From a virus (Duplodnaviria; Heunggongvirae; Uroviricota; Caudoviricetes): 41,470 bases of DNA. The notes under the pieces were generated by a model. It had not been told where the DNA came from, did no database searches, and saw nothing but the letters and a program-made list of their open reading frames with translations. Below, one piece after another: positions 1,690-41,470 of this stretch. The position numbers and the translations under genes are program-made. The DNA lies in IMG/VR virus record IMGVR_UViG_2690316195_000001, positions 1 through 41,470 of that record. One strand, written 5' to 3'. The stretch's first letter is position 1, and each line of letters starts with the position of its first letter.

Positions 1690-1704
1690 TGGTGTCCCCT
1701 GCAG
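1690..1704. other. Probable prophage-host junction core (attR): TGGTGTCCCCTGCAG, reverse complement of a tRNA 3' end ending in CCA
   Basis: 15-nt string matches the 3' terminus of tRNA-Arg (argW) as recalled; sits between host cscB and the first prophage gene, on the end opposite the integrase. Confidence 0.55.
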
Positions 1705-1777
1705 ACATCTACTTGAGGCGGCAGGGGATTGATTGGAATGGTGTTTTTTAGATGTGAAAAATATTTTACCCGCTATT

Positions 1778-1978
1778 TTACCCATTGGCGCGGCTTAAGA
1801 GCTTATTTTTGAATTCACAATGGTCACGATATAACCATCTTGCTCGCCCGTGGATAACTTTGGCTTTTGGCAGGTCGCCGGACTTAATCCGGTCGTAGAT
1901 GAAGGTTTTACCAAAGCCAGTATCAGCCATGATGAATTTCAAATCAACTAGTGAATCAGGCTGTAGTTCGTGTTGCAT
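1778..1978 (-). CDS. torI: Excisionase / recombination directionality factor, AlpA/TorI family (66 aa)
   Basis: Small winged-helix-like protein (MADTGFGKTFIYDRIKSGDLP...GRARWLYRDHCEF) typical of AlpA/TorI regulators of P4-type integrases; terminal position matches torI in E. coli K-12 KplE1/CPS-53. Confidence 0.7.
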   Translation of the reverse strand: MQHELQPDSLVDLKFIMADTGFGKTFIYDRIKSGDLPKAKVIHGRARWLYRDHCEFKNKLLSRANG

Positions 1979-2022
1979 GAGTGCTATCTCCGAATAGGGA
2001 ATCGAACCTGCAAATCAGGTAA

Positions 2023-2043
2023 TAAAAAACCGCCATCAGGCGG
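2023..2043 (-). terminator. Rho-independent terminator ending the leftward early operon
   Basis: Stem CCGCC/GGCGG (2030-2034/2039-2043), 4-nt loop, plus-strand A-tract 2024-2029 giving a T-tract on the minus strand; stop codon of ORF 2036..2218 lies in the loop. Confidence 0.5.
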
Positions 2044-2218
2044 CTTGGTGTTCTTTCAGTTCTTCAATTCGAATATTGGTTACGTCTGCATGCGCTATCT
2101 GCGCCCACAGCATCCAGTGGTCATAGCAGTCGTTGATGTTCTCCGCTTCGATAACTCTGTTGAATGGCTCTCCATTCCATTCACCTGTGACTCGGAAGTG
2201 CATTCGTGATTTCTCCAA
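2036..2218 (-). CDS. Hypothetical small phage protein (60 aa)
   Basis: Track ORF at the distal end of the early-left operon, same strand as neighbours; no recognisable family. Confidence 0.4.
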   Translation of the reverse strand: MEKSRMHFRVTGEWNGEPFNRVIEAENINDCYDHWMLWAQIAHADVTNIRIEELKEHQAA

Positions 2219-2238
2219 AAGATGCTTGAGTGCGCTTC

Positions 2239-2550
2239 TTATTCGATTCGCACACCTGGTATTTCGCCTTTTGAAATGGCTAAGTCATAAATTTGCGCAG
2301 CACTATACCCATCTCGCATCCATGAATCTAAGGCGCGAATAGCCTCGCTACGCTTTTTATCTTCTCTTTCATTTTTGATATCAACGAGGACATCAACGCA
2401 ATTAAGGCATATGTGGATTTTGTCCTTACATTCGATCATGGCGGCTTTACCATGATTTCCTCCACACAGTGAGCATAAATCTTCAGGGTCTGTCTGGTAT
2501 TTCTGTAACGTTAAAGGGTTGAATGTTGAACAGGCCATAATCATCTCCAT
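2239..2550 (-). CDS. Hypothetical Cys-rich protein, possible zinc finger (start may be the third ATG at 2538)
   Basis: Track ORF with CxxC...CxxC spacing (CSLCGG, CLNC); GGAG lies 6 nt upstream of the ATG at 2538. Confidence 0.5.
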   Translation of the reverse strand: MEMIMACSTFNPLTLQKYQTDPEDLCSLCGGNHGKAAMIECKDKIHICLNCVDVLVDIKNEREDKKRSEAIRALDSWMRDGYSAAQIYDLAISKGEIPGVRIE

Positions 2551-2609
2551 AAAACAAAACTCGCCGTAGCGAGTTCAGATAAAAGAAATCCCCGCGAATG
2601 CGAGGATTG

Positions 2610-2894
2610 TTATTCAGTGCCGATATTCACCTTTATCGCGAACACCTTTACCGGTTTATCGCCGAAGTGGGGATGTGTGATTGTCTTGATTTCATATCCG
2701 TCATACGGAATATCAATTCTGCGGCTGGAATCGTCGCGCTTCGGATATCCCTTTGTGATAATCAGACGGTCATACTTTCGGAACATAATTCGCTTATTCC
2801 AATAGTCATTACACAGGCGATACTCTTCCGTTTTCTCTCCGCGAATCATGGCATCGAAGTATTCACCTTTAACGGCAAGTTGCAGGTTAGCCAC
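2610..2894 (-). CDS. Hypothetical protein, ASCH/DUF3850-like
   Basis: 94-aa ORF in operon context; N-terminal motif (KGEYFDAMIRGEKTEEYR) resembles ASCH-like small proteins; family call tentative. Confidence 0.45.
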   Translation of the reverse strand: MANLQLAVKGEYFDAMIRGEKTEEYRLCNDYWNKRIMFRKYDRLIITKGYPKRDDSSRRIDIPYDGYEIKTITHPHFGDKPVKVFAIKVNIGTE

Positions 2895-3438
2895 GGTTAA
2901 CCTCCTGCGGCGGCTCCGGTAGCGGCATCCAGTGAGTTATTTCATCGGCAAAGATATCTGAGTTAAGTTCCGTCCAACTATTCCAATACCCAGATTCATC
3001 CCACCATTTAACCTCGACATGCTCGCCGTCGGTCACTAACACATCAGCATACCCTTTCGGCATTCGCTCACTACAGCTTATCCAAGCATCCGGAGTTACC
3101 GGAGAGTTGCCATTTACATCGAAGTTTGGCTCTGCGTCCTGAACCAGGAGGATGTAACCATTCTTGGCAGTATCAAGTTCTAACGCTTCGGTGACGGTGC
3201 CGAAATAGCGATTACCTAAATCAGCATCACAAGTGCTTACATCAATGGAAACTTCCATGCCTTCGATCAATTCTGGCAAGTTGTAAGTTTGGCTTACAGG
3301 TTCGGCTTCCAGTGAGGCTAACGCAATCCGTGCCAGTTCTTCCGCTTCTTCTGCTGGCAGTACAACGTTGCTACCCGGTCCGTATGTTTCGCGCCACTGC
3401 TTGATTGTCAGCAGTCGCTCTTTGGTCATAGTGGTCAT
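2887..3438 (-). CDS. DUF551-domain phage protein (start trimmed to MTTMTKERLL)
   Basis: C-terminal ...ITHWMPLPEPPQ signature of DUF551; AAGGAGAG RBS upstream of the ATG at 3438; the 5' part of the track ORF overlaps the upstream gene. Confidence 0.65.
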   Translation of the reverse strand: MTTMTKERLLTIKQWRETYGPGSNVVLPAEEAEELARIALASLEAEPVSQTYNLPELIEGMEVSIDVSTCDADLGNRYFGTVTEALELDTAKNGYILLVQDAEPNFDVNGNSPVTPDAWISCSERMPKGYADVLVTDGEHVEVKWWDESGYWNSWTELNSDIFADEITHWMPLPEPPQEVNRG

Positions 3439-3439
3439 A

Positions 3440-3946
3440 TCACTCTCCTTTGATGCGAACGCCAGCGACGCGTGGCACATTAACTTCCACAATGCGCACA
3501 GTTGGTTTGTACATCTCAATTGCTGTCAGCCAGTCAGCGCCGGTCATGCGCTTTTCTGCATCGCCATTAGTCCACTTAACCGGCACACCAATAGCCTTCA
3601 TCGCGATTTCTATTTCCCCGGCAATGGCGCTTTTTCCGCAACCAGTAAAACCAGATACAACGACAAGAACTTCGCCTTTGGCTGGTTTTATTTCCCGTGC
3701 TTCCAGTTCTGCAATGCGCTTTTTTGCTGCTTCCAGTTCATCCAGTAATGCCAGCACAGCAGCCGGATTGGCTGCTGCTATGAATCGCTTATTGGCGCGC
3801 TTATCTGGTCCTGCGCATAATGCTATGTAGTAATTGCCATTCAGTCCGGCATCAGCAATTACCCCATAGTAGTCATCAGTACACCATTCGCCTGGTGTTG
3901 CATTTTCTGCCGCCATTCGCAGTGCCTGGTAATTAATTTCGCTCAC
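3440..3946 (-). CDS. Ead/Ea22-like protein (GTG start)
   Basis: N-terminal VSEINYQALRMAAENATPGEW and coiled-coil segment typical of Ea22-like proteins; GGGGAGG RBS 5-6 nt upstream of the GTG at 3944-3946. Confidence 0.65.
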   Translation of the reverse strand: MSEINYQALRMAAENATPGEWCTDDYYGVIADAGLNGNYYIALCAGPDKRANKRFIAAANPAAVLALLDELEAAKKRIAELEAREIKPAKGEVLVVVSGFTGCGKSAIAGEIEIAMKAIGVPVKWTNGDAEKRMTGADWLTAIEMYKPTVRIVEVNVPRVAGVRIKGE

Positions 3947-4199
3947 TGGTTGCCTCCCCTTCCCACGTTTTAATGCTTTCACCACAGAACGGGCAAAATG
4001 AAACTCGAATCGGTAATTTAGAAAATTCACCTGACCGCAGCATGATCAAGTCTTGTGAGTGAATTAATTCATTGTTATAGATTTTGTATTTCAGCAGACC
4101 TTTTCGCGTCGTGTATTCAGCATCATGCTCAAGGGACCTTGCCAGTGCCGCACACGGCTCTATCTGATTGCCATAAACCTGGCATTTTGATTCGCTCAT
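3933..4199 (-). CDS. Hypothetical small protein with zinc-ribbon-like Cys pairs
   Basis: 88-aa track ORF, operon context, C..C and CPFC motifs; overlaps the downstream gene by 14 nt. Confidence 0.45.
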   Translation of the reverse strand: MSESKCQVYGNQIEPCAALARSLEHDAEYTTRKGLLKYKIYNNELIHSQDLIMLRSGEFSKLPIRVSFCPFCGESIKTWEGEATSERN

Positions 4200-4402
4200 T
4201 GCTTGAATCCCTCCCGAAGCTGTTCTGCACAGTGCAGCAGCGCATCAGTCGCTTCTTTCACCGTAACGAGATCGCCATCGTCCAGTCCTGCAATTTTTGC
4301 GTGCCTGACAAACGCCGCGCAAAGGTCGTTAAACGCCCCAGCCCGCACATCCGCCAAGAAAGCGTTAGCAGCAGCCAATTCCTGATAGTCAATCTTGCTC
4401 AC
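4196..4402 (-). CDS. Ea22-like N-terminal-domain paralogue (68 aa, GTG start)
   Basis: Starts [15 protein letters not shown], paralogous to the N-terminus of the 3440..3946 protein, with the same 17-nt start/RBS region (gctcactggttgcctcc). Confidence 0.5.
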
Positions 4403-4562
4403 TGGTTGCCTCCTTTGCGCCACATCGCATTCAGATATTTGTTTTGATTCACTGACGGAAAAGAATTTCTCTTAAGCAATTCCTCTCTCGATGGCATTGG
4501 CTTTACGCGTTGGCGAATAATCATTTCTGCCGGAAGAATGCCGGGATTGTATGCAAGTCCTC

Positions 4563-4853
4563 TCATGATTTACTCTCAACGAACTGGTCAATAGCCATGC
4601 TAAGTGACACACCTAATGTCTCGATGTGCTGCTGAATATCCTGTAGCGTCTGCGCCTGAGATAACAGGATTTCACGGTTGCATAACTCTTTAACCAGATG
4701 CTCAAACTTGCTGTAATAACCGATACGGCTTAGTGTTTCTTTCCCTGCATTCTCACCTTCTTTGATAATTCCTCTTTCGCTAAGAATCAGGTCGTGTTTG
4801 GTTCCGGTAATAACGTATTTGCCGAGGTCGATGTTTAGCTTCATTGTTTTCAT
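4563..4853 (-). CDS. Conserved hypothetical phage protein (96 aa)
   Basis: Track ORF trimmed to [17 protein letters not shown] with GAGGAA RBS upstream; operon context. Confidence 0.55.
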
Positions 4854-4863
4854 TGTTAATTCC

Positions 4864-5160
4864 TCAGTCATTACTGATAGCGCCATAACGTGAGCGGTAA
4901 TTACGCAGGCGCGGGTCGATATATTCAGGGAAGTGGGTATATGTGGCTTTACGGAATGGTCGGATTGATGTCTGGTAAATTCGCTCGCGTTCTTCTTTCT
5001 CTGCAAGCCATATACAGTGGCGAAATTCCTTTTCCTCTTTCGTTTCCTGCGGTAGTGACATTATCCGATCGTAGTTTTTTCTGAATTTATCCAGCACCTC
5101 CGATACGGAATTGCCGGAACAGCGGCGCGGGTCATCCGCACCATACAGAGGCGCTGGCAT
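4864..5160 (-). CDS. Hypothetical phage protein (98 aa)
   Basis: Track ORF with AAGGA RBS, tight operon spacing. Confidence 0.5.
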   Translation of the reverse strand: MPAPLYGADDPRRCSGNSVSEVLDKFRKNYDRIMSLPQETKEEKEFRHCIWLAEKEERERIYQTSIRPFRKATYTHFPEYIDPRLRNYRSRYGAISND

Positions 5161-5183
5161 GATTAAATCCTTATTTTTCTGAA

Positions 5184-5567
5184 TCAGAATGGGATGGAAT
5201 CGTCGTATACAGGAGTGTTCTGCTGGTTACTACTTTGCTGCTGCGGGCCATTTCCTGAAGCTGCAAATCCAATCTTTGCATTCAGTAATTCAAGAGTGAT
5301 TGATTGACCATTTTGCCCCTGATAAACATCAACCCTGATGTTTTCTCCGGTAATTTCTACAATGCCACCTTCAACAAGAACACTACGGTAGTAATCCGCT
5401 TGCTCTCCCGGCTTGGCAAATACAACGGCGCTGTAGTTTGTCCATTCTTTCTTTTTTGTCTGGCGATCGTAATACTGAACGCCAGCACGGATGTTGAATC
5501 CGATATTTTCCCCGGCCTGAAACTCTCTTGCGGGCTTGTTTAGTCTTACAGTAATAGAATGTGCCAT
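5184..5567 (-). CDS. Single-stranded DNA-binding protein-like, with SSB-type acidic C-terminal tip
   Basis: 127 aa from MAHSITV; ends ...VYDDSIPF resembling the E. coli SSB tip DDDIPF; immediately downstream of erf with a 1-nt TAATG start/stop overlap. Confidence 0.65.
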   Translation of the reverse strand: MAHSITVRLNKPAREFQAGENIGFNIRAGVQYYDRQTKKKEWTNYSAVVFAKPGEQADYYRSVLVEGGIVEITGENIRVDVYQGQNGQSITLELLNAKIGFAASGNGPQQQSSNQQNTPVYDDSIPF

Positions 5568-6172
5568 TAAGCAGCAGCTCCTTCTAATTCGTCTCGTCTG
5601 ATGTTGTAAACGTCCTGCGCTTTGTGCTGCTCCGGTGTGCCTTCGAGCATCTTCCACGCTTTGGCGAACGCCTGTTTAAGCTCTTCTACGGTGTTTTTCT
5701 GCAATGCTGCGTCAGTGAATGCTTTTAGAACCTGTTCAGGTGTAGGTGATGGTTTTGATTGCTTTGCTGCTGCGTTCTGCTGATGTTTATGCTCGTCTGT
5801 ATCTGCATCTTTCGCATCATCAATGCCGAACAAACCATTGAGGCAATACTTGCGTGCATAAGAGCTTGTAGCTCCCGTAACTTGTGCAGAATCCATTCCT
5901 TTCTTGCTTTCTTCCTCTCGTGCAAGAGCGGTTGCTGTATGACTGTTTTCGCCATCAGTAATAGTTGCCGTTGCTTTCACGTAATACCGATCACCAATCA
6001 ACACAACTTCATCGCTGATTGATAAAAACAGACCATTCAGTAACGGCTTAACGCCTTCAAGAATATCTTCGCAGCTTCTGTATTTATATTTGCCGAATGA
6101 GTTGTACTGATTCTTTGGCGCGTTCAGATTCTCCTGAATAGCTGCCAGTCTTGCGTAAAATTCTTTGCTCAT
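5567..6172 (-). CDS. erf: Erf-family single-strand annealing recombinase
   Basis: MSKEFYARLAAIQENLNAPKNQYNSFGKYKYRSCEDILEG... matches P22 Erf as recalled; start trimmed from the track ORF to the MSKEFY ATG. Confidence 0.9.
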   Translation of the reverse strand: MSKEFYARLAAIQENLNAPKNQYNSFGKYKYRSCEDILEGVKPLLNGLFLSISDEVVLIGDRYYVKATATITDGENSHTATALAREEESKKGMDSAQVTGATSSYARKYCLNGLFGIDDAKDADTDEHKHQQNAAAKQSKPSPTPEQVLKAFTDAALQKNTVEELKQAFAKAWKMLEGTPEQHKAQDVYNIRRDELEGAAA

Positions 6173-6273
6173 ATGATTGTTCTCAGAATGGACACGGCCC
6201 AAGGAAATAACGCTGATTTAATACTTCGACTCGGGACAAGTTAAGGCATACCCGCATTCCTTCGCGGTCGCCA

Positions 6274-6432
6274 TTATGGCGATACCAGAGAGCTTTCTGT
6301 GTGTACATGCGTCTCTGTAACTTGCTCTCCTTCACTGTGGTTGCAAGTGACATGAATATCTCCTTCGTTACCGATTAAATCTTTCATCTGACGAATGAAT
6401 TCTTCGTCTGACCAGTTATCTGTAAAACTCAT
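6274..6432 (-). CDS. Small hypothetical protein (52 aa) in the kil position
   Basis: ATGA start/stop overlap with the upstream cIII-like gene; no family recognised; positional analogy only. Confidence 0.35.
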   Translation of the reverse strand: MSFTDNWSDEEFIRQMKDLIGNEGDIHVTCNHSEGEQVTETHVHTESSLVSP

Positions 6433-6599
6433 GGACGGCCTTGTTGTTTCAAAATATCCCAAAGCTTTTCGAGCAAACTTTTCATTCTTGGTTGTTTAAA
6501 GTCTGCTCCGGTTAAAATGTTTTTTCGTGAATGCTGCACCGATAAAATTGGGTTGAAAGGGCGAACCGATGCCGCCCCTGCAATAGCGAACTGTTGCAT
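6429..6599 (-). CDS. cIII: CIII-like protein (FtsH inhibitor, stabilises CII)
   Basis: 56 aa, MQQFAIAG...LEKLWDILKQQGRP resembles lambda CIII (MQYAIAGW...DILNQPGVP); GAAGGAG RBS. Confidence 0.7.
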   Translation of the reverse strand: MQQFAIAGAASVRPFNPILSVQHSRKNILTGADFKQPRMKSLLEKLWDILKQQGRP

Positions 6600-6662
6600 A
6601 GGATGCTCCTTCTGTTTGATTGCATAACGAAAACGCCTCGAGTGAAGCGTTATTGGTATGCA

Positions 6663-6689
6663 TATAAAAAGGCCCTCACACTGGAGGGC
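6663..6689 (-). terminator. Rho-independent terminator (tL-like) between the AT-rich island and cIII
   Basis: Stem GCCCTC/GAGGGC with 6-nt loop; plus-strand A-tract 6666-6670 gives a T-tract on the minus strand. Confidence 0.5.
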
Positions 6690-6793
6690 AAAGAAGATTT
6701 CCAATAATCAGAACAAGTCGGCTCCTGTTTAGTTACGAGCGACATTGCTCCGTGTATTCACTCGTTGGAATGAATACACAGTGCTTATTCGTA

Positions 6794-7264
6794 CTAATAA
6801 AACACCCAGTTTTCTGTTTCTTGGTTGTGTCCAAAGTTATATTCAATATCTGGTGTTGATGTATCAATATTCTTCATCCCATCAACAAGAGTTGATACAA
6901 CAGCCAAATCTTGTTTGATTCTCATTAAATGGTATTTCTTCCGGCGCAATAAACTTTCAATGGCAAGTTTCTTCGTTGGGAATGCAAAAGATCTTTCTGC
7001 ATTTTTTGCTACTTTCTTAATTGCATATCTATTTCTCTTTTGTTTCCATTCCTGTAACCACTGATTTGGTGCTGGTTTAAAATTAACAATCCAATGCGCA
7101 GGAACCAACCATGCATAATGCTCTGTCTGATGAAAAGCTATATATTGAAGTGCGAATATTTTGATTCCATCTTCTTCAACTGTCGCCTGGAATCTCCAGA
7201 AAACAGGCATTCCATCATGTTCAGTTTCTGATTCAGGAAAAGGTACGCTCCATGATTTTGTCAT
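6794..7264 (-). CDS. Hypothetical protein (156 aa), AT-rich island gene A
   Basis: Track ORF with GAGGTGAG RBS; strongly AT-rich relative to flanks; no recognisable domain. Confidence 0.6.
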   Translation of the reverse strand: MTKSWSVPFPESETEHDGMPVFWRFQATVEEDGIKIFALQYIAFHQTEHYAWLVPAHWIVNFKPAPNQWLQEWKQKRNRYAIKKVAKNAERSFAFPTKKLAIESLLRRKKYHLMRIKQDLAVVSTLVDGMKNIDTSTPDIEYNFGHNQETENWVFY

Positions 7265-7312
7265 ATCTCACCTCAAATAATTCAGTGCAGTGTTTATTCT
7301 GTTGTTAGTGCC

Positions 7313-7338
7313 AAAAATAAAGGCCGACTATGCGGCCT
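7313..7338 (-). terminator. Rho-independent terminator between island genes B and A
   Basis: Stem AGGCCG/CGGCCT (7321-7326/7333-7338), loop ACTATG, adjacent plus-strand A-tract 7313-7320; stop codon of gene B sits in the loop. Confidence 0.5.
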
Positions 7339-7951
7339 CGGAAGGAAGTCCAATCATCTTATTCAAATCTTCTACCCGTAAAGCAGGAAGTGCTGTACTT
7401 GCTTTATCTGCTTCTTTTGGTAGCAATTCTTTGCTTTCAGGCCAAACTTCAATAAGTCGCTTAACTGTTGTGACTGAGTTCAAAGCAGCCCATACATTTG
7501 ATTCGATATCCTTTTTCTTGGCTTCAAGTTTTTGTTGCAATGCGCAGATTTCATCAAACCTTTTTGTTATTTCGTGTTCTGCGCTAAACATGCATTTATC
7601 TTCGTTCGGAGTAGGGAGCAATATATCTTCGCCGTTGCCGTCTTTCCCATATGAAAGCCATCCAACCCTTCTGCCAGATACAGTAAGATAAATTGAAGTA
7701 GAACGAACATCGTATGAGTAAAATGAACATCCCATCTTTCCAAGTTCTTCACTTATAGCTACCAACTTGGATGATAACTGATCCACTTCCTCAGTTTTCT
7801 TTTTACCGCCAAACGCAATAACTCTGGCGTCAAGTGCAAGCTGGTTCTTTAACTTTGTTACTTCTTCAAGTTCAGTGAAAACCCCAGACTTAATTAAAGC
7901 GTTACGAGCGATTTCCTCTTTCATTCTCGTAGTTAAGCGGATTGATGACAT
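7328..7951 (-). CDS. Hypothetical protein (207 aa), AT-rich island gene B
   Basis: Track ORF trimmed to MSSIRLTT with GAGAGGA RBS; AT-rich; predicted coiled-coil segments; no recognisable domain. Confidence 0.6.
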   Translation of the reverse strand: MSSIRLTTRMKEEIARNALIKSGVFTELEEVTKLKNQLALDARVIAFGGKKKTEEVDQLSSKLVAISEELGKMGCSFYSYDVRSTSIYLTVSGRRVGWLSYGKDGNGEDILLPTPNEDKCMFSAEHEITKRFDEICALQQKLEAKKKDIESNVWAALNSVTTVKRLIEVWPESKELLPKEADKASTALPALRVEDLNKMIGLPSEAA

Positions 7952-8133
7952 ATTAATTCCTCTCAAATAAGTGGTTTGCTGCCTAATTTCATTTTCTGGC
8001 GGCCTGAGCATGCCACACCCATTTCACTGCGTGGCTTGCGGTAGTAAAGATTGTGCCTGTCTTTTAACCACATCAGGCTCGGTGGTTCTCGTGTACCCCT
8101 ACAGCGAGAAAAATAGTAAAATCCTCTCACCCC

Positions 8134-8496
8134 TTATTTTGTCAGGGGGATATCTCCTTCAGTTCTGACCATTCGCCTTAATACTTTCCTTAAGTCGATG
8201 TAAAGTTGAAGGTCTCCATTTGCTGCGGCATCAGCCATTTTTTGCCTGACAAGCAGTAATGTTTCATACGGCTCAATAAGAATATCGTCATGAGTAATTA
8301 GGTGAAGCGTTGCCGCATCAACTATTCCTAGAGCTGCGCCAAGTATCAAAAATTCCCTGCTATTTTTGTCGCATGAGGAGATAAGCGTATTTAGCGCATA
8401 CCTAATATTCTTTATAGCTGTTGTTAATGCTGCAATTTCTTCTATGGCGTCTTCTTCAATGAGCTTTTTAAGCTCATATTTTTCTTCCTGACCCAT
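8134..8496 (-). CDS. Hypothetical protein (120 aa), AT-rich island gene C, immediately downstream of N
   Basis: Track ORF trimmed to MGQEEKYELKK with GAGG RBS; no recognisable domain. Confidence 0.5.
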   Translation of the reverse strand: MGQEEKYELKKLIEEDAIEEIAALTTAIKNIRYALNTLISSCDKNSREFLILGAALGIVDAATLHLITHDDILIEPYETLLLVRQKMADAAANGDLQLYIDLRKVLRRMVRTEGDIPLTK

Positions 8497-8498: not shown

Positions 8499-8771
8499 TT
8501 ACCTCGCCGTCAGTTGTTTTGATTTCCGGTAGCCTGCCGCGTAAATAGCTACGTTTGGCAGGCAAATACTTCCACTGCATTCATCTGCCTTCTTGCAGCG
8601 AAGGCTTCCGAGTGATGCTGCTTTATCTGCTCTGACGCAACCAGAGAGCTTTAGCGCAATTTTTCGCGCCAGTCGCTGCTCTTGCATTGCCTGTTCACGT
8701 TGAGCCTGTCTGCGTGCTCTGCGGCGATTTCTGGCGTTATCGTCAGCCAGATATGTAATGACTACTGTCAT
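8499..8771 (-). CDS. N: N-like transcription antiterminator (P22 gp24 type)
   Basis: Arg-rich N-terminus (NARNRRRARRQAQREQ) and C-terminus ...LPNVAIYAAGYRKSKQLTAR resembling P22 gp24 as recalled; GGAGG RBS; downstream of nutL. Confidence 0.8.
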   Translation of the reverse strand: MTVVITYLADDNARNRRRARRQAQREQAMQEQRLARKIALKLSGCVRADKAASLGSLRCKKADECSGSICLPNVAIYAAGYRKSKQLTAR

Positions 8772-9084: not shown

Positions 9085-9127
9085 TTCCCGCATTTCGGCG
9101 GGACAATCCCATCAATGTTAAAGAGCC
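9085..9127 (-). promoter_or_regulatory. nutL (boxA GGCTCTTTAA plus boxB hairpin)
   Basis: Minus-strand boxB is identical to the nutR boxB core (TTCCCGCCGAAATGCGGGAA); boxA-like 10-mer sits 14 nt upstream with the same spacing as nutR. Confidence 0.6.
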
Positions 9128-9714: not shown

Positions 9715-9731
9715 AAGCGCCCCTTGCGTGA

Positions 9732-32261: not shown

Positions 32262-34655
32262 ATGGCTAATTACCGTGATTTGTTAGAGCAGGCTGGCGCA
32301 CGTTACGGTGTGCCAGAAGGGTTGATGACTGCACTGGGTGCCAAGGAGTCTTCTTACAACCCTGCCGCAGTAAGCTCCGCCGGGGCTGTAGGATTGACTC
32401 AGGTCATGCCTGGGACATGGCGTGATATGGGTTATACCGATGAGCAAATGCAAAACCCCGAATATCAGGCTGACGCTGGCGCGCGCTATCTGGCAAAGAT
32501 GTACCAGCAGTTTGGTAACTGGCGTGACGCTCTTCAGGCTTATCACGACGGTCCCGGCAACGTTATGAAGGCAAAGCGTGGTGAATATACGCCAGGACCT
32601 GAAGGCCGCGGTTACGTTGATGATCGCTTTGCTCAATGGGCGGGTGACCCGGTGACAGACTCAACAGTCGAACAGCGCGCCACCTCTGCAAAGGTACATC
32701 CTCAGCAAGACCCTAACAACCCGTTTGCACAACTGGAAGCACAGTCATCCGAACAAGTATCGGCATCAGGCGTGCAGTCAGACCCAAATAATCCATTTGC
32801 TCAGATTGAGCAGCAGGCAGCCAGTCAGCAGCCACCCCAACCCGTAAGTTCTGTCGCACCGAAACCTGTTCAGCAGCAAGGCGGAATAATGTCTGACCTT
32901 GGTAATGGACTTGCTGAAACCGGGCGCGGCTTACTACAGGCAGGAATCAACGTAGCGAACATACCTGCTGAACTCACTGATGCTGTAACAAGCGCGGCGG
33001 CTTGGGCTGGCGGTAAACTCGGCATTGGCGATGGTACATATCAACCAGCACCACGAGTAACAACGCAGGGATTAGAGCAGGACTTTGGCCTTCAGCAAGG
33101 CGCGCTGACTCCACAAACGACAGAGGGAAGGGTATTTGCTGAAGCATTACCTTACCTCACTCCTGCTGGCGTTGAGAGAGCGGCAACACAGGCACCAACA
33201 CTTGCTGGTCGAATTGCTCAGGGGGCAACTCGCCTTCTAGCAGAAAACGCAGTTGGATCACTTGCTGCAAACAGTGCGAAAGATGATGCGGAAGCACTCG
33301 CCACCGATTTAGGCGTTGGTGTGCTGGCTGGCGGTACTATTAACGCTGCCGGACGTGGATTAGGTGCTGCTTATCGTGGTGTTCGTGGTTCGATAGCACC
33401 AGAAGCTCAACAGGCTATCAGGTTTGCAGAGCGTGAAGGAGTTCCTCTGCACACCACAGACCTGTTACAGCCTACTTCCCGCGTCGGGAAAATGGCGCAG
33501 ACTACAGCAGAAAATATCCCTCTGGCTGGCACAAGCGGAATGAGAGCAACGCAACAGGAAGCGAGAAGCCAGTTGGTGCAGAGATTTGCTGATAAATTCG
33601 GTGAGTATGATCCATCTGTTGTTATTGACAGCCTTAAAGCGAAAACATCAGGAATTCGTCGTGCCGCCGGTAATCGACTGGAGCAGGTTCAGAATGCTAT
33701 GGCTGGAGTAAACATTCAGCCTGCGCGAGCAATTCAGCAGATTGATACAGAAATATCTAATCTGCAGAAGCTTGGTAAGGTAGCTGATAACGAGACAATT
33801 TCAAAACTTCAGTCATATCGTGATGAGCTTGTTCGCAATGCTGGCCCTGATGGTCCGGTTAATCTGGATTTGAAGCAATTAAGCGATCTGCGCAGCCAGT
33901 TCAGAATGGACGTGAAGGGGGAGCGACCAGTGTTACCAAACCGTTCCGATGCCGCCATTCAACGTGTTTACAAGGCGATGACCGACGATATCAATGGTGC
34001 CATTGGTCAGAATCTTGGCAACGATACTCTCCGTAAATATCAGCAGGCCAATGCCGTCTACGCTGACGAAGCGGCGAAACTAAAGAATACCAGGCTGAAG
34101 AATGTTCTCATGAAAGGAGACCTGACGCCGGAAGTTGTCAACAACATGCTATTCAGCAAGAACAAATCGGAAATTAAGACGCTGTATAACTCAGTTGGTC
34201 GTGTTGGCAGGGCGCAAATGCGCAATGGCATCATTGGAAAGGCGATGGAGAAATCTGGCGGATCCCCTGACCAGTTCCTTCGGCAGCTTAACATCCTGCA
34301 AAACCAGACTGGCATCACATTTAAGGGGCAGGACGCTGCTTATCTGAAAGGATTAAAAAACTACCTGCAATCCACGCAGCAGGCTGCAAAAGCGGCAGTA
34401 ACAACACCCACAGGGCAGCAAACTATCCCGTTCATTATTGGGTATGGGACGGCAATGAACCCGGCGACAACTGGCGCAGCGGTAAGCTACGGACTTCTTA
34501 CTCGCGCCTATGAGAGCGAACCATTCAGAAATGCAATGCTCCGAATGGCAAACACCCCACGCGGATCAACAGCCTTTGAGAAAGCAATGCAGCAGGCACA
34601 AAAGGCAATTAACGCTCTGACGCAGGGGGCTAAGTCTGATGCGTTGTCAGAATAG
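32262..34655 (+). CDS. Ejection protein (gp16 position) with N-terminal lytic transglycosylase domain
   Basis: 797 aa; N-terminus carries an SLT-like motif (ALGAKESSYNPAAVSSAGAVGLTQVMPGTWRD...YHDGPGNV). Confidence 0.75.
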   Translation: MANYRDLLEQAGARYGVPEGLMTALGAKESSYNPAAVSSAGAVGLTQVMPGTWRDMGYTDEQMQNPEYQADAGARYLAKMYQQFGNWRDALQAYHDGPGNVMKAKRGEYTPGPEGRGYVDDRFAQWAGDPVTDSTVEQRATSAKVHPQQDPNNPFAQLEAQSSEQVSASGVQSDPNNPFAQIEQQAASQQPPQPVSSVAPKPVQQQGGIMSDLGNGLAETGRGLLQAGINVANIPAELTDAVTSAAAWAGGKLGIGDGTYQPAPRVTTQGLEQDFGLQQGALTPQTTEGRVFAEALPYLTPAGVERAATQAPTLAGRIAQGATRLLAENAVGSLAANSAKDDAEALATDLGVGVLAGGTINAAGRGLGAAYRGVRGSIAPEAQQAIRFAEREGVPLHTTDLLQPTSRVGKMAQTTAENIPLAGTSGMRATQQEARSQLVQRFADKFGEYDPSVVIDSLKAKTSGIRRAAGNRLEQVQNAMAGVNIQPARAIQQIDTEISNLQKLGKVADNETISKLQSYRDELVRNAGPDGPVNLDLKQLSDLRSQFRMDVKGERPVLPNRSDAAIQRVYKAMTDDINGAIGQNLGNDTLRKYQQANAVYADEAAKLKNTRLKNVLMKGDLTPEVVNNMLFSKNKSEIKTLYNSVGRVGRAQMRNGIIGKAMEKSGGSPDQFLRQLNILQNQTGITFKGQDAAYLKGLKNYLQSTQQAAKAAVTTPTGQQTIPFIIGYGTAMNPATTGAAVSYGLLTRAYESEPFRNAMLRMANTPRGSTAFEKAMQQAQKAINALTQGAKSDALSE

Positions 34656-34745: not shown

Positions 34746-35231
34746 TTATCTTATGTTACTGCTACTGTTGCATGTGACTGTATTTCCAAACCCTGAATTG
34801 CAGTTTGTGTAAGTGTCAACGCGTGTTGGATAGGGTTGAGTTATAACAGGCTGTCTCGCTTTTTGCTCGATCGCTTGCATTGTGTTTACAGCCTGATAAT
34901 TCAATAAAGCCTGCTGGAATGCTTGGCTTTGTGCTATTTGTTGGGCTTGTTCTTGGCTTTGTAATTGAACATAAAGATTCTGAAGCTCAAGTCTTGCCTG
35001 TGCGTCACTTATCTTGCCTTCATCGACACCTTGCCCGAGCATCTTTGCAGCAAGGACATACAGCTTAGGTGTTGGTGCTGATGCCATGCGTGAGTCGTTC
35101 TTCACACTGGCATCAAGGCAATTAGCCATATCGCTAAGCTTTTGATAGCGTTGTTCGCAACTTGCTTGATAGTCACTTACTTTTGCGCATCCAACCAGTA
35201 GAAGCGGGATAATTAACAGTGATTTTTTCAT
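34746..35231 (-). CDS. Lipoprotein of unknown function (moron on opposite strand)
   Basis: Start trimmed to MKKSLLIIPLLLVGC (lipobox LVGC) with AAGGAGAG RBS; Gln-rich mature region with several Cys. Confidence 0.7.
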   Translation of the reverse strand: MKKSLLIIPLLLVGCAKVSDYQASCEQRYQKLSDMANCLDASVKNDSRMASAPTPKLYVLAAKMLGQGVDEGKISDAQARLELQNLYVQLQSQEQAQQIAQSQAFQQALLNYQAVNTMQAIEQKARQPVITQPYPTRVDTYTNCNSGFGNTVTCNSSSNIR

Positions 35232-35301
35232 ATGGTTAACTCTCCTTAGTTTTTCACAGGATATCATGAAGGCAATGCCATTTTATCCGGAAACTAGATT
35301 T

Positions 35302-35568
35302 CTATGTTTCCTTTTTATTATTGCTATACATGGTCTTAAGCGTTTCAAAAACCATTTTCTTAACCATATCAGATTGTTGTTCTGCCATACGCTCTGCATC
35401 GTCAATGTAAACGGATGCAGAGCTTTGTTTAGCCAACGATTCTTCAATCGCTGCAATTATCTCTGAGTTCAGCGATCTGTTATTCATCTTCGCACGCTGC
35501 TTAATTTTCGCGTGGAGTTCATGCGGAAGTCTCAAGTGAAACTGCGCCTCGTCGTATTTACTGTACAT
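35302..35568 (-). CDS. mnt: Mnt-like ribbon-helix-helix repressor (Arc/MetJ fold)
   Basis: FHLRLPHELHAKIKQRAKMNNRSLNSEI...DDAERMAEQQSDMVKKMVFETLK resembles P22 Mnt (FNFRMPMEVREKLKFRAEANGRSMNSEL...NDAERLADEQSELVKKMVFDTLK). Confidence 0.8.
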   Translation of the reverse strand: MYSKYDEAQFHLRLPHELHAKIKQRAKMNNRSLNSEIIAAIEESLAKQSSASVYIDDAERMAEQQSDMVKKMVFETLKTMYSNNKKET

Positions 35569-35689
35569 CCTTGATGCCTCACCAGTTGGGTGGAATGGCA
35601 TCGTAACCTACTGGATAAATACTCAATAGTACCATTTCGGTATGCAATCACATCATGGTTGCATCATATCATTCGTCTGGAGCAATGAA

Positions 35690-37582
35690 ATGTCAGATAT
35701 CACCGCAAATGTTGTGGTAAGCATGCCTTCGCAACTCTTCACTATGGCTCGTTCTTTTAAAGCCGTAGCCAATGGCAAAATTTATATCGGTAAAATTGAC
35801 ACTGACCCGGTAAATCCTGAAAACCAGATTCAGGTTTATGTGGAGAACGAAGACGGTTCTCACGTTCCTGTTTCGCAACCAATCATCATTAACACTGCTG
35901 GATATCCGGTATATAACGGACAGATTGCCAAGTTCGTAACTGTGCAAGGCCATTCTATGGCTGTTTATGATGCATATGGTGCGCAGCAGTTCTATTTTCC
36001 TAATGTGCTGAAGTATGACCCCGATCAGGCATTGCCAGCTTTCATAAGTAAATTGGCAGCAGTTGATGGTGAATCTTATATTGTTGGGGCGACTTATGAA
36101 CAAATAAGGACATCTAATGTTTCTGGAACGCAAATAAAATGCGTAGGAAGAGAACATAATAAGGATGGAGGGGAAGGATGGTTCTTCCTTGACTCAGATG
36201 ATACAACGACTGAAGATGATGATGGAACAGTATTAATTGATGCAGTCGGCCGTCGCTGGAAGCGTTCATATAATGGCGCAAAAATGGCTTCATGGTTTGG
36301 CGTGAAATCTGGAACAGAGGTTTCACCTGCTATTCAAAATATGCTTAATACTGGTACTGGAGGTATAGAAATTAAGGATGGGCAATACAATTCTACCACA
36401 AAAGTTACAGTAAACCACTCTGGATCAAATTTTCCTGTAATGGGAAGAAAAAGTAAGAGGTTTGACTTTACTGGCGAGTCAATGGTGAATACTGCATTTA
36501 ACACCAATGGCAATGATTTCCTTGAGTATATAGGTAATTCAGAAGGGGACGGGCAGGGTGTGCATAGCGGTATGAAGTTATCTAATTTCACTGTTTATGG
36601 TACTGGTAACTCTGGAGTTGGATTACGGTTAAGCAATGCTGCATACCTAAAAGTTGAGGATGTGTATCTCGTAAGAAATAATTCAGGCTTGGTAATAACA
36701 GGAGTTCTTACCAGTGAATTTAACAGAATTAACTCTCAATATAATAACTACGGTATGTACATCAACGGAGGAACAAACAGCACAGTTAACGCACTAAAAA
36801 TAAATGGTGTTTTTAGTGGTAACTCAAAATTTGGAATTGAAGGAGATATAGGCACAAGGATAAATCTAAACAACTGCAATTTTGAGGGTAATGGAACTCA
36901 GGGAGATACTGGTACAGGAGGTGTTTACCTAAGAGCTAAAGAACCAATGTCTGTGATAAATATATCTGATTGCTATTTTGAAGCAAATCAAGGAATATCA
37001 GACATTCAGGTTAATAACATGACATCTTCACCTCTTATAGTAAATATCAATTCATGCACATTTATAAGGGGGAATTCATCAGGCGGTTATTGTACATATG
37101 TGATTAGAGCGTTAAGCACTGGTGGTGGGCGTGTCATTGTTAACCTTAATGGGTGTCATTTTTTTACTCAAACAGCTTTTGGATACATACCTAGCGCTTC
37201 GAGACCATTTATCTCAGGAGGTACTTATATGACTTTAAATGGAATGGATACCTGTCATTTTAGTGAGGACATAAGCAAGTCTATATCTACGGTAAGCACT
37301 TCATCGGTGATTTCTGGAAGTGTAACATCGGCAGGTGTTGCGTATGCACCATCTTATTTAACAATAGCAAAACAATCCACAGGGGTATATTCAATTGATA
37401 GCACTTTCTCATATGGACCAACAGTAAATGACTTTCAGGTAGTAGCAAGTACTAAAACTAACGGGTTTAAGGTGCTATATGCAGGCAAGCCAAGCACAAC
37501 AGCCATCAGGATCGTGACCACTGATAACTCTGGCAACTTGGCTGATGCAGATTTTGACTTTATGATAACAAGAGTTAGATAA
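35690..37582 (+). CDS. Tailspike with P22-type head-binding domain and divergent beta-helix receptor-binding domain
   Basis: N-terminal about 125 aa ([43 protein letters not shown]...VLKYDPDQ) match the P22 gp9 head-binding domain; remainder is a repetitive, AT-rich beta-helix-like region. Confidence 0.9.
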
Positions 37583-37586
37583 AATT

Positions 37587-37619
37587 AAGGGCGAATACCG
37601 CCCTTAGCTTATTTTTTTA
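37587..37619. terminator. Bidirectional rho-independent terminator between convergent tailspike and gtrC
   Basis: Stem AAGGGCG/CGCCCTT, loop AATAC, with A-rich 5' flank and T-rich 3' flank. Confidence 0.6.
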
Positions 37620-38880
37620 TTATATCTAAATACCATCCTGAGTGTGGTAGTGTGTGCATTTTCACGCGGCTCCCTGGCTCTGCTGTCTCATATTTGTATG
37701 CCTCTTGCACCCATCCATTGTTAGGTCTTTTTTCAATTTTAAAGCTAACAATTCCAGATAGAATTACTGAGCAAGCCACTATGCAAAATGCTAATTTCTT
37801 TACATGCCCATGAAGCATATTAGTGAATGCTAGAAGTATCGACACCCAAAATATGGCCGGTATGACAAAATACCTTTGTCCTGGTCCTATTTGTAAGAGA
37901 GGCCATTGAGGCTGGTCTCTTGCAATGACTGGTCTGGCAAGGGCAAATCCCAACATAAGATAAGGAAAAATCACTAATGCTTTTTCTTTCCAGTTCCCTT
38001 TTAATAGCACGTATGCACTAATTGATAGGCCACATAAAGAAACAAAGTAATTTAAAGCATGCAGATCCCACACCTTTCTTGATAAGCTCTCGCTAAGAAA
38101 TGAGCCAAGGAATACTCTGGAGGATAGTATATCCATCAAAATACCTACACCTGCACCAAGTGGCGCGGTCGGTCGAGAGCCTTTAGAAGAGAGAAGTATG
38201 GCGGCTATCTGAATTAAACACACTATTGCGAAAGTTATGTAGAATAAGTTTAAGTTTCTGAATGCATTTTTTACTGCATTGATAGGAGTTTTTAGAATAT
38301 CTCCGTTTGTAATTCTTAGTAAGGCAACAGGAGCTAAAAAAACAATGAATGGCCCACTTAGGCCAGCCACAACCATCACCAAAAAGTCGTGTGCTTTCCA
38401 ATATAATCCATCAGTTCTATCTGCTACCAGCACCAAGAATAGCCATATTGCCATATACCAATGAGTGTTGGTTACGTTGGCATGCACCTCTTCAAGGTGT
38501 GGCATAGTTAAAATGAAGATTGAAATTAATATTCTTGGATATATAGAAACGCTTTTGAATCTATTAGATAGTATGAAGGTTATTATTACGCATCTTATCG
38601 ATAATGCAATAACAGTGAAAATAAAAGGTGATAGATATAATGGGAACAGCATGGAGAATGTCGCAACAAGTTTTGAAATTGTCTGATAGTAACCATCCTG
38701 TACTAAAATTATAGATTTCAGAGGGCCCAATGCATAAGCCTGACCAAGCCATACCCGTCCATCCTCTGCCCATAGTTGAGGGTGTGAAATAATATCAGGA
38801 CGACGCATGCAGAATATGATGAAACATATAACAAATATAATCAAAAACAAAAATATTCTGTTTGTGTTTATGCTATTCAT
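37609..38880 (-). CDS. gtrC: GtrC-like serotype-specific O-antigen glucosyltransferase (polytopic membrane protein)
   Basis: 423 aa, about 10 TM segments, AT-rich; ATGA overlap with gtrB; third gene of a gtrABC-type operon. Confidence 0.65.
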
Positions 38881-39800
38881 GATTGTTCCTTTTTCTTTAA
38901 AATATATCGTGGTCTGCATTTTACTTCCACATAAATTCTTCCTATATATTCACCAAGTACACCGATACCGATAAGTTGAATACCTCCAAGGAAAAGAATG
39001 GAGACCAATAACGATGGATATCCACGAACAGCATTGCCGAATACAAGCGTGTCAAAAATCATCCATGCACCATAAAGAAAAGCAATTCCAGCAACGAACA
39101 ATCCGATATAAGTCCACATGCGCAGCGGGAATGTTGAGAAACTGGTTATCCCCTCAAGGGCAAGGTTCCACAGTTTCCATCCGTTAAATTTAGTGCTGCC
39201 TGCGACTCGTTCTGCTCGTGCATATTCAACGACATCGGTGCGTCCGCCAACCCAGCTCAGCACGCCCTTCATAAACAGGTTGCGCTCTGGCATGAGCTTA
39301 ATGTTTTCCACCACCTCGCGAGACATCAAGCGGAAATCACCAACGTTTTCCTCGATCTGCGGGTTGCTAATTTTGTTATGCAGCTTATAGAACCACTCGG
39401 CGGTTTTCCTCTTCAGTCTGCCATCCGTTGATCGGTCAGATCGTTTAGCAAGCACCATATCGGCACCTGCTTGCCACTTTTCAATCAGATGAGGAATAAC
39501 CTCAATCGGGTCTTGCAGGTCAACATCAATAGGAATAACAGCATCGCCTGTTGCATGGTCTAACCCTGCGAATAATGCTGGTTCTTTACCAAAGTTTCGT
39601 GTAAATGACAGCGGAACAACTAGAGGATCTGAAACAGCCAGAGCATTAATAATTGACTCCGTAGCGTCTTTGCTGCCGTCATTTATGAAAACAATTTCCA
39701 CTTCGTATGGCTTCAACTCTTCGAATTCACGTACCGTTTTATAAAAAATTGGTATTGCTTCTTCTTCATTGAAGACAGGAACTACAAGAGATATCTTCAT
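38877..39800 (-). CDS. gtrB: GtrB bactoprenol glucosyltransferase (GT2 family)
   Basis: 307 aa; GT2 motifs ([19 protein letters not shown]-x-D region) plus two C-terminal TM helices. Confidence 0.9.
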
Positions 39801-40159
39801 TTCGCATCCCTAAAGACAATGAACTTTGAATAGACGAAACCGCACACAAGACTGATGGCTGAGAAGGTGATGAGAGTGACAATTGGAGGAAGTGAACATC
39901 TATCAGCAGCCCATCCAACAGTTGCACTCAGTGTTCCCATGAACCCGACATATAACATGTAGCGCATCGTTGTAGTTGATGCTTTGAATGTGAATTTTGC
40001 ATTCGCGAAGAAGCTAAAACTCACAGCCACAACAAAACCTGCGAAGTTTGCAAGAGCTTGGTTTGTATGCGCGACATAGATACATACACCAAAAACCACC
40101 CAGTGTATAAGTGTGTTCAGCACACCAATCGAGGTGTACTTTGCAAATAGCTTTAACAT
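39797..40159 (-). CDS. gtrA: GtrA flippase (GtrA/DPMS2-family small membrane protein)
   Basis: 120 aa with four TM segments; ATGA overlap with gtrB. Confidence 0.85.
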
Positions 40160-40312
40160 TTCTTCTATCAGCTAATAATCAAAGGCATGAAGTCTATCAT
40201 CCAAGTCTCAATCGATCGATGACTTGCTGTGGTTGATGAGACAAAACTGATGCACACAAAGCTTTGCACTGGATTGCTAGACTTTGCGCTCTTCGATAGT
40301 GGTTAAGGTGGA

Positions 40313-41470
40313 TCACTCCACCTTTTCATCAAGCCAGTCCGCCCACCATTGCATCATTTCCCTGCGTTTATCGAGATACTGCGCATGGTTGTAAATCCCG
40401 CGCACAGAACCGCCGTTGGCATGTGCCAGTTGCACTTCAATAGCATCAGCAGGCCATTCGTGCTCGTTCATAATCGTGCTGAATTCATGCCTGAATCCGT
40501 GACCGCTTTCCAGACCCTCATAGCCGATTTGTTTGATCACAAGCAATACCGCGTTCTCGCAGATTGGCTTTTTCTTATCGTTGCGGCCGGCAAAAACAAA
40601 CTCTGATACTGGTTTGGTGATAGAGCTTAGCGTAGTGAGAAGTTCAACCACCTGGTCTGACATAGGAACCACATGAATTTTGCGTCCCTTCATCACACTG
40701 GCGTTGATAGTGATAATCCTGTTTTCAAAATCGACGTTATTCCATAGCATAGAACGAAGCTCTTTCGTTCTTAGGGCTGTATAGCGTAAAACCTTGGTGG
40801 CAATGAGCGATACGATACTTCCTGAAAATGTTGCAAGTGCTTTGTTGAATGCCGGGATCTGGTCGGCAGGTAAAAATGGGAAGTTCTTCTTGCGGTATCC
40901 CTTCATGGCGTCAGCAAGGTCAGGTGCCGGGTTATATTTAGCCCTACCAGTGACAATAGCGTAACGGAAAACCTCGCCGCATCTTCTGCGGGCTTTGTTG
41001 GCTCGCTCCATTGCACCGCGATCTTCAAATCTGCGGATTACTTCCAGCAGTTGCATCGGCTCAATATCCTGAATTTCAAGGCCGCCGATGATAGGTAAAA
41101 TGTCGTCATCAAACATTTTTGCAAGTTCAGTCGCATACCCTACTGACCAGACTTGCTTCTTGTGCTCGTACCATTCCTTGTAAATCGCACTAAAGGAATT
41201 GTTGTTAGACGAAGCCTTTTTCGCCTTTACCGGATCGATGCCAACCGAGATGTCTTTCCTCGCAGTCCATGCCTTATCCCTTGCCTCCTGCAAAGTCATT
41301 AGCGGATATTTTCCTACGGTCAGGATTTTCTCCTTACCGTCAATCTTGTAGCGAAGCTGCCATACCTTTTTCCCTGACACAGGGACATAAAGGTACAGGC
41401 CATTACCATCGAGAAGGCGGTATGGTTTTTCTTTCGGCTTTGCTGCTTCAATCTGCTTAACGGTGAGCAT
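40313..41470 (-). CDS. int: Tyrosine integrase, P4/CP4-57 type
   Basis: 385 aa; N-terminal arm-binding DUF4102-like region (KPYRLLDGNGLYLYV...WQLRYK) and C-terminal catalytic domain (R...HGFRHEF...Y); start codon is the last codon of the window. Confidence 0.9.
   Translation of the reverse strand: MLTVKQIEAAKPKEKPYRLLDGNGLYLYVPVSGKKVWQLRYKIDGKEKILTVGKYPLMTLQEARDKAWTARKDISVGIDPVKAKKASSNNNSFSAIYKEWYEHKKQVWSVGYATELAKMFDDDILPIIGGLEIQDIEPMQLLEVIRRFEDRGAMERANKARRRCGEVFRYAIVTGRAKYNPAPDLADAMKGYRKKNFPFLPADQIPAFNKALATFSGSIVSLIATKVLRYTALRTKELRSMLWNNVDFENRIITINASVMKGRKIHVVPMSDQVVELLTTLSSITKPVSEFVFAGRNDKKKPICENAVLLVIKQIGYEGLESGHGFRHEFSTIMNEHEWPADAIEVQLAHANGGSVRGIYNHAQYLDKRREMMQWWADWLDEKVE

Follow-up and report, generated by a model that had tools for sequence, protein, structure and literature searches.

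Positions 1 to 41,470 of the IMG/VR virus record IMGVR_UViG_2690316195_000001 (41,470 nucleotides, hereafter the window) hold a prophage and the host gene beside it. The host gene is cscB (1..1248, forward strand), which encodes a sucrose permease of 415 amino acids and flanks the prophage without being part of it. From 1690 to 41470, the window is a gene-dense prophage stretch: torI stands at its left and the integrase gene intS at its right, with early, lysis, virion, and O-antigen modification genes between them. Judged by its sequence relationships, the element is very probably a complete temperate phage genome of the P22-like kind (Lederbergvirus, Sf6/HK620 subtype), integrated by IntS in the 3′ end of argW in an Escherichia coli strain that carries csc genes.

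The left boundary is exact at 1690, because an argW-matching core occupies 1690..1704 and similarity to HK620, Sf6, and the CPS-53 (KplE1) prophage of E. coli K-12 starts at base 1690. This 15-nucleotide att core on the torI side, TGGTGTCCCCTGCAG, duplicates the 3′ end of argW: reverse-complemented, it equals the final 15 nucleotides of that tRNA-Arg(CCU) gene exactly, and it is the same as the pawZ repeat of CPS-53 and the annotated attP cores of HK620 and Sf6. About 440 bp of noncoding DNA separate it from the end of cscB. On the other side, the right boundary given by an earlier, sequence-only reading was a mere window edge, since the window stops at the start codon of intS (41470); the element continues for about 176 bp. 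We read this end from a public E. coli draft contig, LIUX01000001.1 (GCA_001419825.1), which was recovered by exact-protein look-ups and is 100% identical to the window over 1-15951 and 27609-41470. On the contig, argW lies 162 bp past the intS start and is followed by yfdC and mlaA, which places the second att core and argW 162-176 bp beyond the window. The prophage spans window position 1690 to the equivalent of about 41646, or approximately 39.96 kb including both att cores; Sf6 is 39.0 kb long and HK620 38.3 kb. A tRNA scan of the window returned no tRNA, argW being outside it, and Rfam at gathering thresholds returned no match anywhere in the window.

The proximity of a sucrose-utilization gene, noted in the sequence-only reading, is borne out by cscB. 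CscB is 100% identical to an oligosaccharide transporter of the major facilitator superfamily in E. coli 55989, where the gene adjoins cscK and cscA; the csc regulon has been located between the variable argW region and dsdX (PMC3032704). The layout cscB-torI-P22-like prophage-gtr-intS-argW-yfdC recurs in E. coli prophages and is common in genomes such as 55989.

Both proteins expected to recombine the ends are intact. IntS (40313..41470, reverse strand) is a tyrosine integrase of 385 amino acids with the Pfam domains Arm-DNA-bind_3, Phage_int_M, and Phage_integrase; it is 99% identical to K-12 IntS and 98-99% identical to the integrases of Sf6 (99%) and HK620. TorI (1778..1978, reverse strand; 66 amino acids) is the recombination directionality factor (RDF), or excisionase, and is 100% identical to K-12 TorI, Sf6 gp18, and HK620 HkaC. 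The P4-type integrase and TorI-like excisionase of the CPS-53 type, as first read from the letters, are thus both present. With intS at the right end, torI at the left, and a duplicated core (the right copy seen only in LIUX01000001.1), the arrangement is that of the KplE1/HK620-type recombination module, already published for HK620, Sf6, and CUS-3 and in print since at least 2010 (PMC2951348). The GenBank record of HK620 itself remarks on the similarity of its int to CPS-53.

The homology to argW is split at the torI end. The core at 1690-1704 corresponds to positions 1-15 of the tRNA 3′ end (as the reverse complement), and the next 16 nucleotides of argW, the T-arm sequence GGAATCGAACCTGCAA, recur 293 bp away at 1998-2013, just upstream of torI. 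The same split is found in K-12 CPS-53, in HK620, and in Sf6, where it falls inside the annotated pI promoter. It looks as if the torI cassette sits within an older, longer attP with tRNA homology.

We translated about 68 candidate genes and compared them by tblastn with Sf6, HK620, K-12 CPS-53, and the argW prophages of E. coli 55989 and JB2. Virion, lysis, replication, regulatory, and recombination genes are all full length. End to end, the 13 virion proteins, TerS and TerL, the replication proteins, N, cI, Cro, CII, Q, the lysis proteins, IntS, and TorI are 92-100% identical in amino acid sequence to counterparts in Sf6, HK620, E. coli prophages, or K-12, and no gene of the prophage in the window contains a frameshift, a premature stop, or an insertion sequence (IS) element. 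Pfam independently confirms the families, including P22_portal, P22_CoatProtein, Head_binding, N_peptide, Cro, Phage_CII, ERF, and Dam. At the level of sequence, the prophage is as intact and complete as the sequence-only reading had held, with none of the translated essential genes broken. Its picture of a mosaic also stands: int/gtr/torI modules at the ends, lambdoid early genes, and a virion cluster of the Sf6 type are all present.

The virion assembly cluster of the P22/Sf6 type (20669..34655, forward strand) keeps the P22 order: TerS, TerL, portal, scaffold, coat, gp4, gp10, the knobbed tail needle gp26, gp14, and the ejection proteins gp7, gp20, and gp16, with the tailspike after them. 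From TerS to gp16, the proteins are full length, without truncation, and 97-100% identical to those of Sf6, HK620, or the JB2 prophage. Pfam assigns Sf6_terminase, Terminase_3, P22_portal, P22_CoatProtein, P22_Tail-4, Phage_stabilise, Phage_tail_NK, Inj_translocase, and SLT, in agreement with the Sf6/P22-type virion genes first proposed. The ejection-protein homologue gp16 (32262-34655; 797 amino acids) carries the SLT lytic transglycosylase domain (PF01464) at its N-terminus; this domain stands where Sf6 gp16 has its first ~207 residues, and gp16 takes the same form in further E. coli prophages, that of JB2 among them. The tailspike (35687..37582, forward strand) joins a conserved P22-type head-binding domain (PF09008, E 7.4e-67, residues 2-114) to a divergent receptor-binding domain (36029-37582). 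Among sequenced phages, the best matches to the latter are the tail proteins of Sf11 and Sf101, at 30-36% amino acid identity, and its DNA occurs in 1 of 5426 complete E. coli genomes, there only in part.

The immunity region (8499..11135, both strands) is lambda-type in architecture and has the specificity of HK620. It comprises N (8499-8771, reverse; Pfam N_peptide, 98% identical to HK620 N), nutL, pL and OL (with a pL-like promoter at 9201-9173), hkaS (9346-9714, reverse), the repressor gene cI (9732-10448, reverse; HTH_3 and Peptidase_S24 domains, 100% identical to HK620 cI), OR and pR, cro (10555-10749, forward; the lambda-family Pfam model Cro, 98% identical to HK620 Cro), and cII (10857-11135, forward; Phage_CII, 97-99%). 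The DNA is 98.5-99.1% identical to positions 7004-9847 of HK620, apart from an extra segment of 206 bp. With N, cI, a lambda-family Cro, and CII in place, the expectation of a lambda-type immunity module held good.

Replication and nin genes (11170..17836, forward strand) are all full length and 95-100% identical to those of Sf6, HK620, or 55989. They include an O-like initiator (11318-12208) and a DnaB-like helicase (12198-13634), each 99-100% identical to its counterpart (99% for both in Sf6), a Dam methylase (14794-15321; Pfam Dam), a Roi/antirepressor protein (15660-16382), and the Q antiterminator (17213-17836). The latter is lambda-type, as the earlier reading had it: it belongs to PF03589 (Antiterm) and is 98% identical to HK620 Q. 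The remaining genes of this region are NinB, NinE, NinF, DUF1364, RusA, and NinH.

The lysis cassette (18271..19383, forward strand) encodes a class II holin of 67 amino acids (18271-18474), a SAR endolysin (18446-18949; Pfam Phage_lysozyme, with a SAR-like N-terminus), Rz (18946-19383; 95% identical to Rz of the 55989 prophage), and, embedded in Rz, the lipoprotein Rz1 (19145-19330; lipobox LGVSAC). Holin and endolysin are 100% identical to the proteins of the 55989 prophage. A phage-21-type cassette had been proposed, and this is right for one half of it. The endolysin is 95.8% identical over 165 residues to the phage-21-type RrrD of the K-12 prophage DLP12. The holin, however, belongs to PF16080 (HP1 type, E 4e-21) and not to the S21 family: it reaches 19.5 bits against the PF04971 cut-off of 26, and its blastp match to DLP12 EssD is not significant (E 0.024 over 27 amino acids). 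At the DNA level, the cassette is 97-98% identical to Salmonella phage Emek and 91.6% identical to phage PS34. In function it probably resembles the phage 21 cassette, pairing a small class II holin with a SAR endolysin, though it is not a 21 cassette as a whole.

Comparison of the whole element at the nucleotide level, by blastn, reveals a mosaic. Matches to Sf6 extend over 22.7 kb of the element and matches to HK620 over 22.0 kb, for the most part at 93-99% identity. The element resembles Sf6 in its head-to-ejection cluster, replication genes, NinB/Dam block, and knobbed needle. It resembles HK620 in the immunity region (8130-11179), across the nin genes from roi to Q, and at the late promoter/qut region; its Erf/Abc2 block, its lysis genes, and a segment of 206 bp between nutL and N match the 55989 prophage. 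The exact mosaic was found in none of 50,697 sequenced phage records and in no complete E. coli genome, the best coverage in either set being 70-81% of either half. By these comparisons the exact combination is new, as is usual for lambdoid mosaics.

Each relative differs from the element in its own way. The likeness to Sf6 (NC_005344, Lederbergvirus Sf6) runs from TerS into gp20 (20669-31466) and over most of gp16, at 93-97% nucleotide and 97-100% amino acid identity over the matching parts, and takes in the integrase, the TorI-type RDF, and the attP core in argW. Unlike the element, Sf6 has a repressor of different specificity (with 434-like operators), a phage-21-type Q, two tRNA genes, a lambda-type S/R lysis pair, the O-acetylase gene oac in place of gtrABC, another tailspike receptor-binding domain, an IS911 insertion, and a different N-terminal part of gp16, where the element has its SLT domain. 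HK620 (NC_002730) shares the immunity region, including hkaQ and hkaS, the nin region, the lambda-type Q, the head genes (97% nucleotide identity), the integrase, TorI, and attP. It differs in a lambda-type holin and endolysin, a needle without a knob, divergent gp20 and gp16, another tailspike receptor-binding domain, and hkcF, an O-antigen-polymerase-like gene, in place of gtrABC; it also lacks the 206-bp segment and an Nmad5 cassette. The 55989 prophage shares the cscB-torI junction, the lysis cassette, the 206-bp segment in the N leader, and the Erf/Abc2 block, and the Sf6-like phage HF4s carries gtrA and gtrB that are 90% identical in nucleotide sequence to those of the element. Prophages of the 55989 type in argW and HF4s differ from it in cI specificity, in Q, in several ea and nin genes, in the tailspike receptor-binding domain, and in the gtrC allele.

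Gene content, intactness, the identities of the modules, and the att core are read directly from the DNA; from the protein families we infer the following mode of action. In the lysogen, the cI repressor of HK620 specificity would keep pL and pR closed, and the gtrABC operon, a 161-residue lipoprotein, an Mnt-type repressor, and the cI-linked HkaS would probably be expressed. The gtr products would decorate the O-antigen with a sugar, most likely glucose, by way of undecaprenyl-phosphate-glucose (Und-P-glucose), with GtrB charging the carrier, GtrA flipping it, and GtrC transferring the sugar. Induction is plausible, given a cI that equals the repressor of the functional phage HK620 and includes an S24 autopeptidase domain. 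Upon an SOS response, self-cleavage of cI would open pL and pR, N would antiterminate transcription, and TorI and IntS would excise the genome at the 15-nucleotide cores, int and the RDF gene being transcribed separately, as is the case in KplE1 (PMC2951348). The O-like initiator and the DnaB-like helicase would replicate the DNA, lambda-type Q would turn on the late genes, and headful packaging by the Sf6-type terminase would fill a P22-type capsid. The class II holin, the SAR endolysin, and the Rz/Rz1 spanins would lyse the cell, and the tailspike of the released particles would bind, and probably cleave, a specific O-antigen.

The sequence-only reading went further and likened the element to the ancestor of K-12 CPS-53/KplE1, so that CPS-53 would have arisen by deletion from an intact form of this kind. 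The ends do invite the comparison. Both elements occupy the argW site with a core of 15/16 nucleotides, carry intS, gtrA (yfdG), gtrB (yfdH), and torI in the same end-module order, and place int and RDF at opposite ends (PMC2951348); IntS is 99%, GtrA 97%, GtrB 92%, and TorI 100% identical to the K-12 proteins. However, the DNA shared by blastn is confined to 1690-2028 (339 bp, att core and torI, 98.2%) and 38940-41470 (2531 bp, gtrB, gtrA, and intS, 91.1%). These 2870 bp amount to 7% of the element and 28% of CPS-53, and blastn, tblastn, and tblastx find no similarity to CPS-53 outside the end modules. CPS-53 is 10.2 kb long and lacks a repressor and a virion cluster; its interior of yfdI, tfaS, and yfdK to yfdT is unrelated, with nothing at E<=1e-3 when yfdI to yfdT is compared with the window by tblastx, and the third gtr gene of the element is unrelated to yfdI. 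When the CPS-53 interior (stretch 5960-11800 of the K-12 locus) was searched against phages, yfdM-yfdT aligned with the early regions of PhiR29 and SfII at 97-98% identity, and mEp460, SfV, and SfIV gave shorter matches of similar identity. All five are long-tailed phages, which fits the tail-fiber assembly genes tfaS, yfdK, and yfdL that CPS-53 carries and that P22-like short-tailed phages lack. Because only the end modules are common and the interior matches phages of the PhiR29/SfII type instead, CPS-53 is what is left of another mosaic that had the same int/gtrAB/torI module, with a lineage in PhiR29/SfII and not among the P22-like phages. For the CPS-53 interior, descent by deletion is already refuted by these comparisons, and we give the ancestral reading almost no credence. 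The correction is of modest value: it shows CPS-53 to be itself a mosaic, with an interior of the PhiR29/SfII kind, and removes such elements as its progenitors. In general, phages of this type do decay into CPS-53-like stubs, though CPS-53 is not one of them: two E. coli drafts, GCA_025830895.1 and GCA_025829615.1, keep only intS-gtrABC and a 117-residue fragment of the tailspike, matching 37057-41470 at 99.4%, and then run into unrelated Rac/Qin-like genes.

Decay, which befalls many E. coli argW prophages of this type (the two int-gtrABC stubs are cases, and CPS-53 survives as a 10-kb remnant), raises the question of whether the prophage, for all its intact frames, is cryptic. In that case it would have been disabled by point mutations in essential proteins or regulatory sites and would persist only as a carrier of gtr and other lysogenic-conversion genes. 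The absence of the exact mosaic among sequenced phage records speaks for such a reading, and so does the 206-bp segment between nutL and N. Several points weigh in the same direction against a complete and functional phage. Missense or regulatory defects may hide behind intact frames; induction, excision, and particle formation are predictions; the int-proximal att arm and the intS promoter lie outside the window and are seen only in the identical public contig; and the 206-bp insert, absent from HK620, may bear on expression of N, though the 55989 prophage has it as well. On the other side stand genes free of frameshifts, stop codons, and IS elements, proteins 92-100% identical to those of functional phages or prophages, a cI that is the same as that of HK620, a plaque-forming temperate phage, and an operator/promoter region 98.5-99% identical to that of HK620. 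We consider a cryptic prophage unlikely and retain the complete temperate phage genome. Much of what it displays is already well described, namely P22-like argW prophages, the KplE1-type recombination module, O-antigen modification by gtr genes, and the neighboring csc locus, and in these respects its value is little beyond cataloguing. No characterized phage has this mosaic, this tailspike domain, or this gtrC allele.

The gtr operon for O-antigen modification (37609..40159, reverse strand) consists of gtrA (39797-40159; flippase-like, PF04138, 97% identical to K-12 YfdG), gtrB (38877-39800; a GT2 bactoprenol glucosyltransferase, PF00535, 92% identical to YfdH), and a gtrC-type gene in the serotype-specific third position (37609-38880, or to 38919 if read from an upstream ATG). 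The earlier description of a gtrABC operon like that of CPS-53 is accurate for gtrA and gtrB and not for the third gene, which has no similarity detectable by tblastn to K-12 YfdI or JB2 GtrC and matches no Pfam or NCBIfam model. It does match phrog_19534 "glucosyltransferase" (E 1.5e-69), and its family, known from bacteria that include Enterobacter and Pantoea, consists of proteins of ~420 amino acids that frequently bear the name "glucosyl transferase". A search of the PDB with the family profile gave no match at E<=1. An AlphaFold model built with 36 homologues reaches a predicted local distance difference test score (pLDDT) of 93 and a predicted template-modeling score (pTM) of 0.92, and its best Foldseek matches in the PDB are all GT-C enzymes that transfer lipid-linked sugars (AglB, ALG9, STT3, AftA, DPY19, PglB, ALG12, and ArnT), with probability about 1.0 and template-modeling (TM) scores of 0.39-0.46. 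Residues E39 and D40 of a WAEDG motif and 15 other columns are invariant across the family. On these grounds, the third gene is a credible serotype-specific GtrC with a predicted GT-C fold. With gtrA, gtrB, and this gene all intact, serotype conversion is plausible.

The allele has a narrow distribution. No copy turned up in the 5426 complete E. coli genomes or in the sequenced phage isolates searched, yet dozens of draft assemblies encode the exact protein; beyond its own cluster, the closest one shares only 50% identity with it. Its cluster at 90% identity contains E. coli and Enterobacter hormaechei proteins, mostly annotated "hypothetical protein". Guanine plus cytosine (G+C) content is low (0.37-0.39) around 37609-38919, which suggests that the gtrC region was recently imported. 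The block from tailspike through gtrCBA to intS stands at 99% identity on at least two different prophage backbones in E. coli; one that differs from that of the element has an ant/arc immI region and another gp16. It is possible, though we put the chance somewhat below even, that the tailspike receptor-binding domain and the adjacent gtrC form an uncharacterized linked pair of receptor recognition and modification, and with it a new serotype conversion. If so, one would recognize and the other modify a particular O-antigen, and together they could define a new O-antigen specificity; even then, the pair is variation within a well-understood theme.

Two genes on the reverse strand (34746..35568) lie between gp16 and the tailspike. 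One (35302-35568) encodes an Mnt/Arc-family repressor (Pfam Arc and Repressor_Mnt). The other (34746-35231), between gp16 and mnt, encodes the 161-residue lipoprotein, Q-rich and with the lipobox LLVGC; it belongs to phrog_6067, its cluster at 90% identity has 871 members in E. coli, and neither PADLOC nor Pfam returned a match to it. P22 has sieA at this position in its genome. The lipoprotein gene is a candidate exclusion or moron gene expressed in the lysogen and is among the accessory cassettes worth flagging, together with the Nmad5 gene and the insert between nutL and N.

In the immunity region, hkaS encodes a multi-pass membrane protein of 122 amino acids (phrog_6534) and directly follows cI, the stop codon of the one gene overlapping the start codon of the other. 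In lambda, rexAB holds this position after cI. Since hkaS adjoins cI in this manner, HkaS is probably coexpressed with the repressor. The 206-bp segment (8787-8992) lies between nutL and the start codon of N; one further prophage compared lacks it, as HK620 does, and the 55989 prophage has it at 99.7% identity. We considered a mobile element, an open reading frame, and a terminator as explanations and rejected them: the segment contains no open reading frame, has no second copy in the window, and matches no Rfam family and no terminator-like site. We keep it as what appears to be an indel polymorphism that the element and the 55989 prophage have in common.

The distal part of the early-left (pL) operon (2036..6704, reverse strand) was identified by Pfam and PHROG matches, with gene calls also taken from calls on the identical contig, and its products are 95-100% identical to those of 55989, Sf6, or HK620. 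It contains the anti-RecBCD gene abc2 (4864-5160) and the Erf recombinase gene (5567-6172; Pfam ERF), ea-type accessory genes (DUF551, Ead/Ea22, DUF2737, and DUF5405), a gene for a protein of 127 amino acids, and small open reading frames at the kil/cIII position. Just downstream of N are 3 further accessory genes (6794..8496, reverse strand): an hkaQ homologue (8134-8496), a gene for an Nmad5-domain protein (7328-7951), and a gene for a 156-residue protein of phrog_1636, a PHROG family without an assigned function (6794-7264). PADLOC, run on 10 accessory proteins including those encoded downstream of N, returned nothing credible, its sole match being Cas1 at E 0.0097 and 13 bits; NCBIfam gave no useful match for GtrC, Nmad5, the tailspike, the holin, or TorI. 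The Nmad5 protein, of 207 amino acids in the form on record, matches PF18757 (nucleotide-modification-associated) at E 5.5e-72. In Dhillonvirus, mutations in nmad5 permit escape from the Tmn defense system (PMC11846954). The cassette that carries the gene (7283-8043, 761 bp) recurs at 98.3% identity in a prophage of a different repressor and N type.

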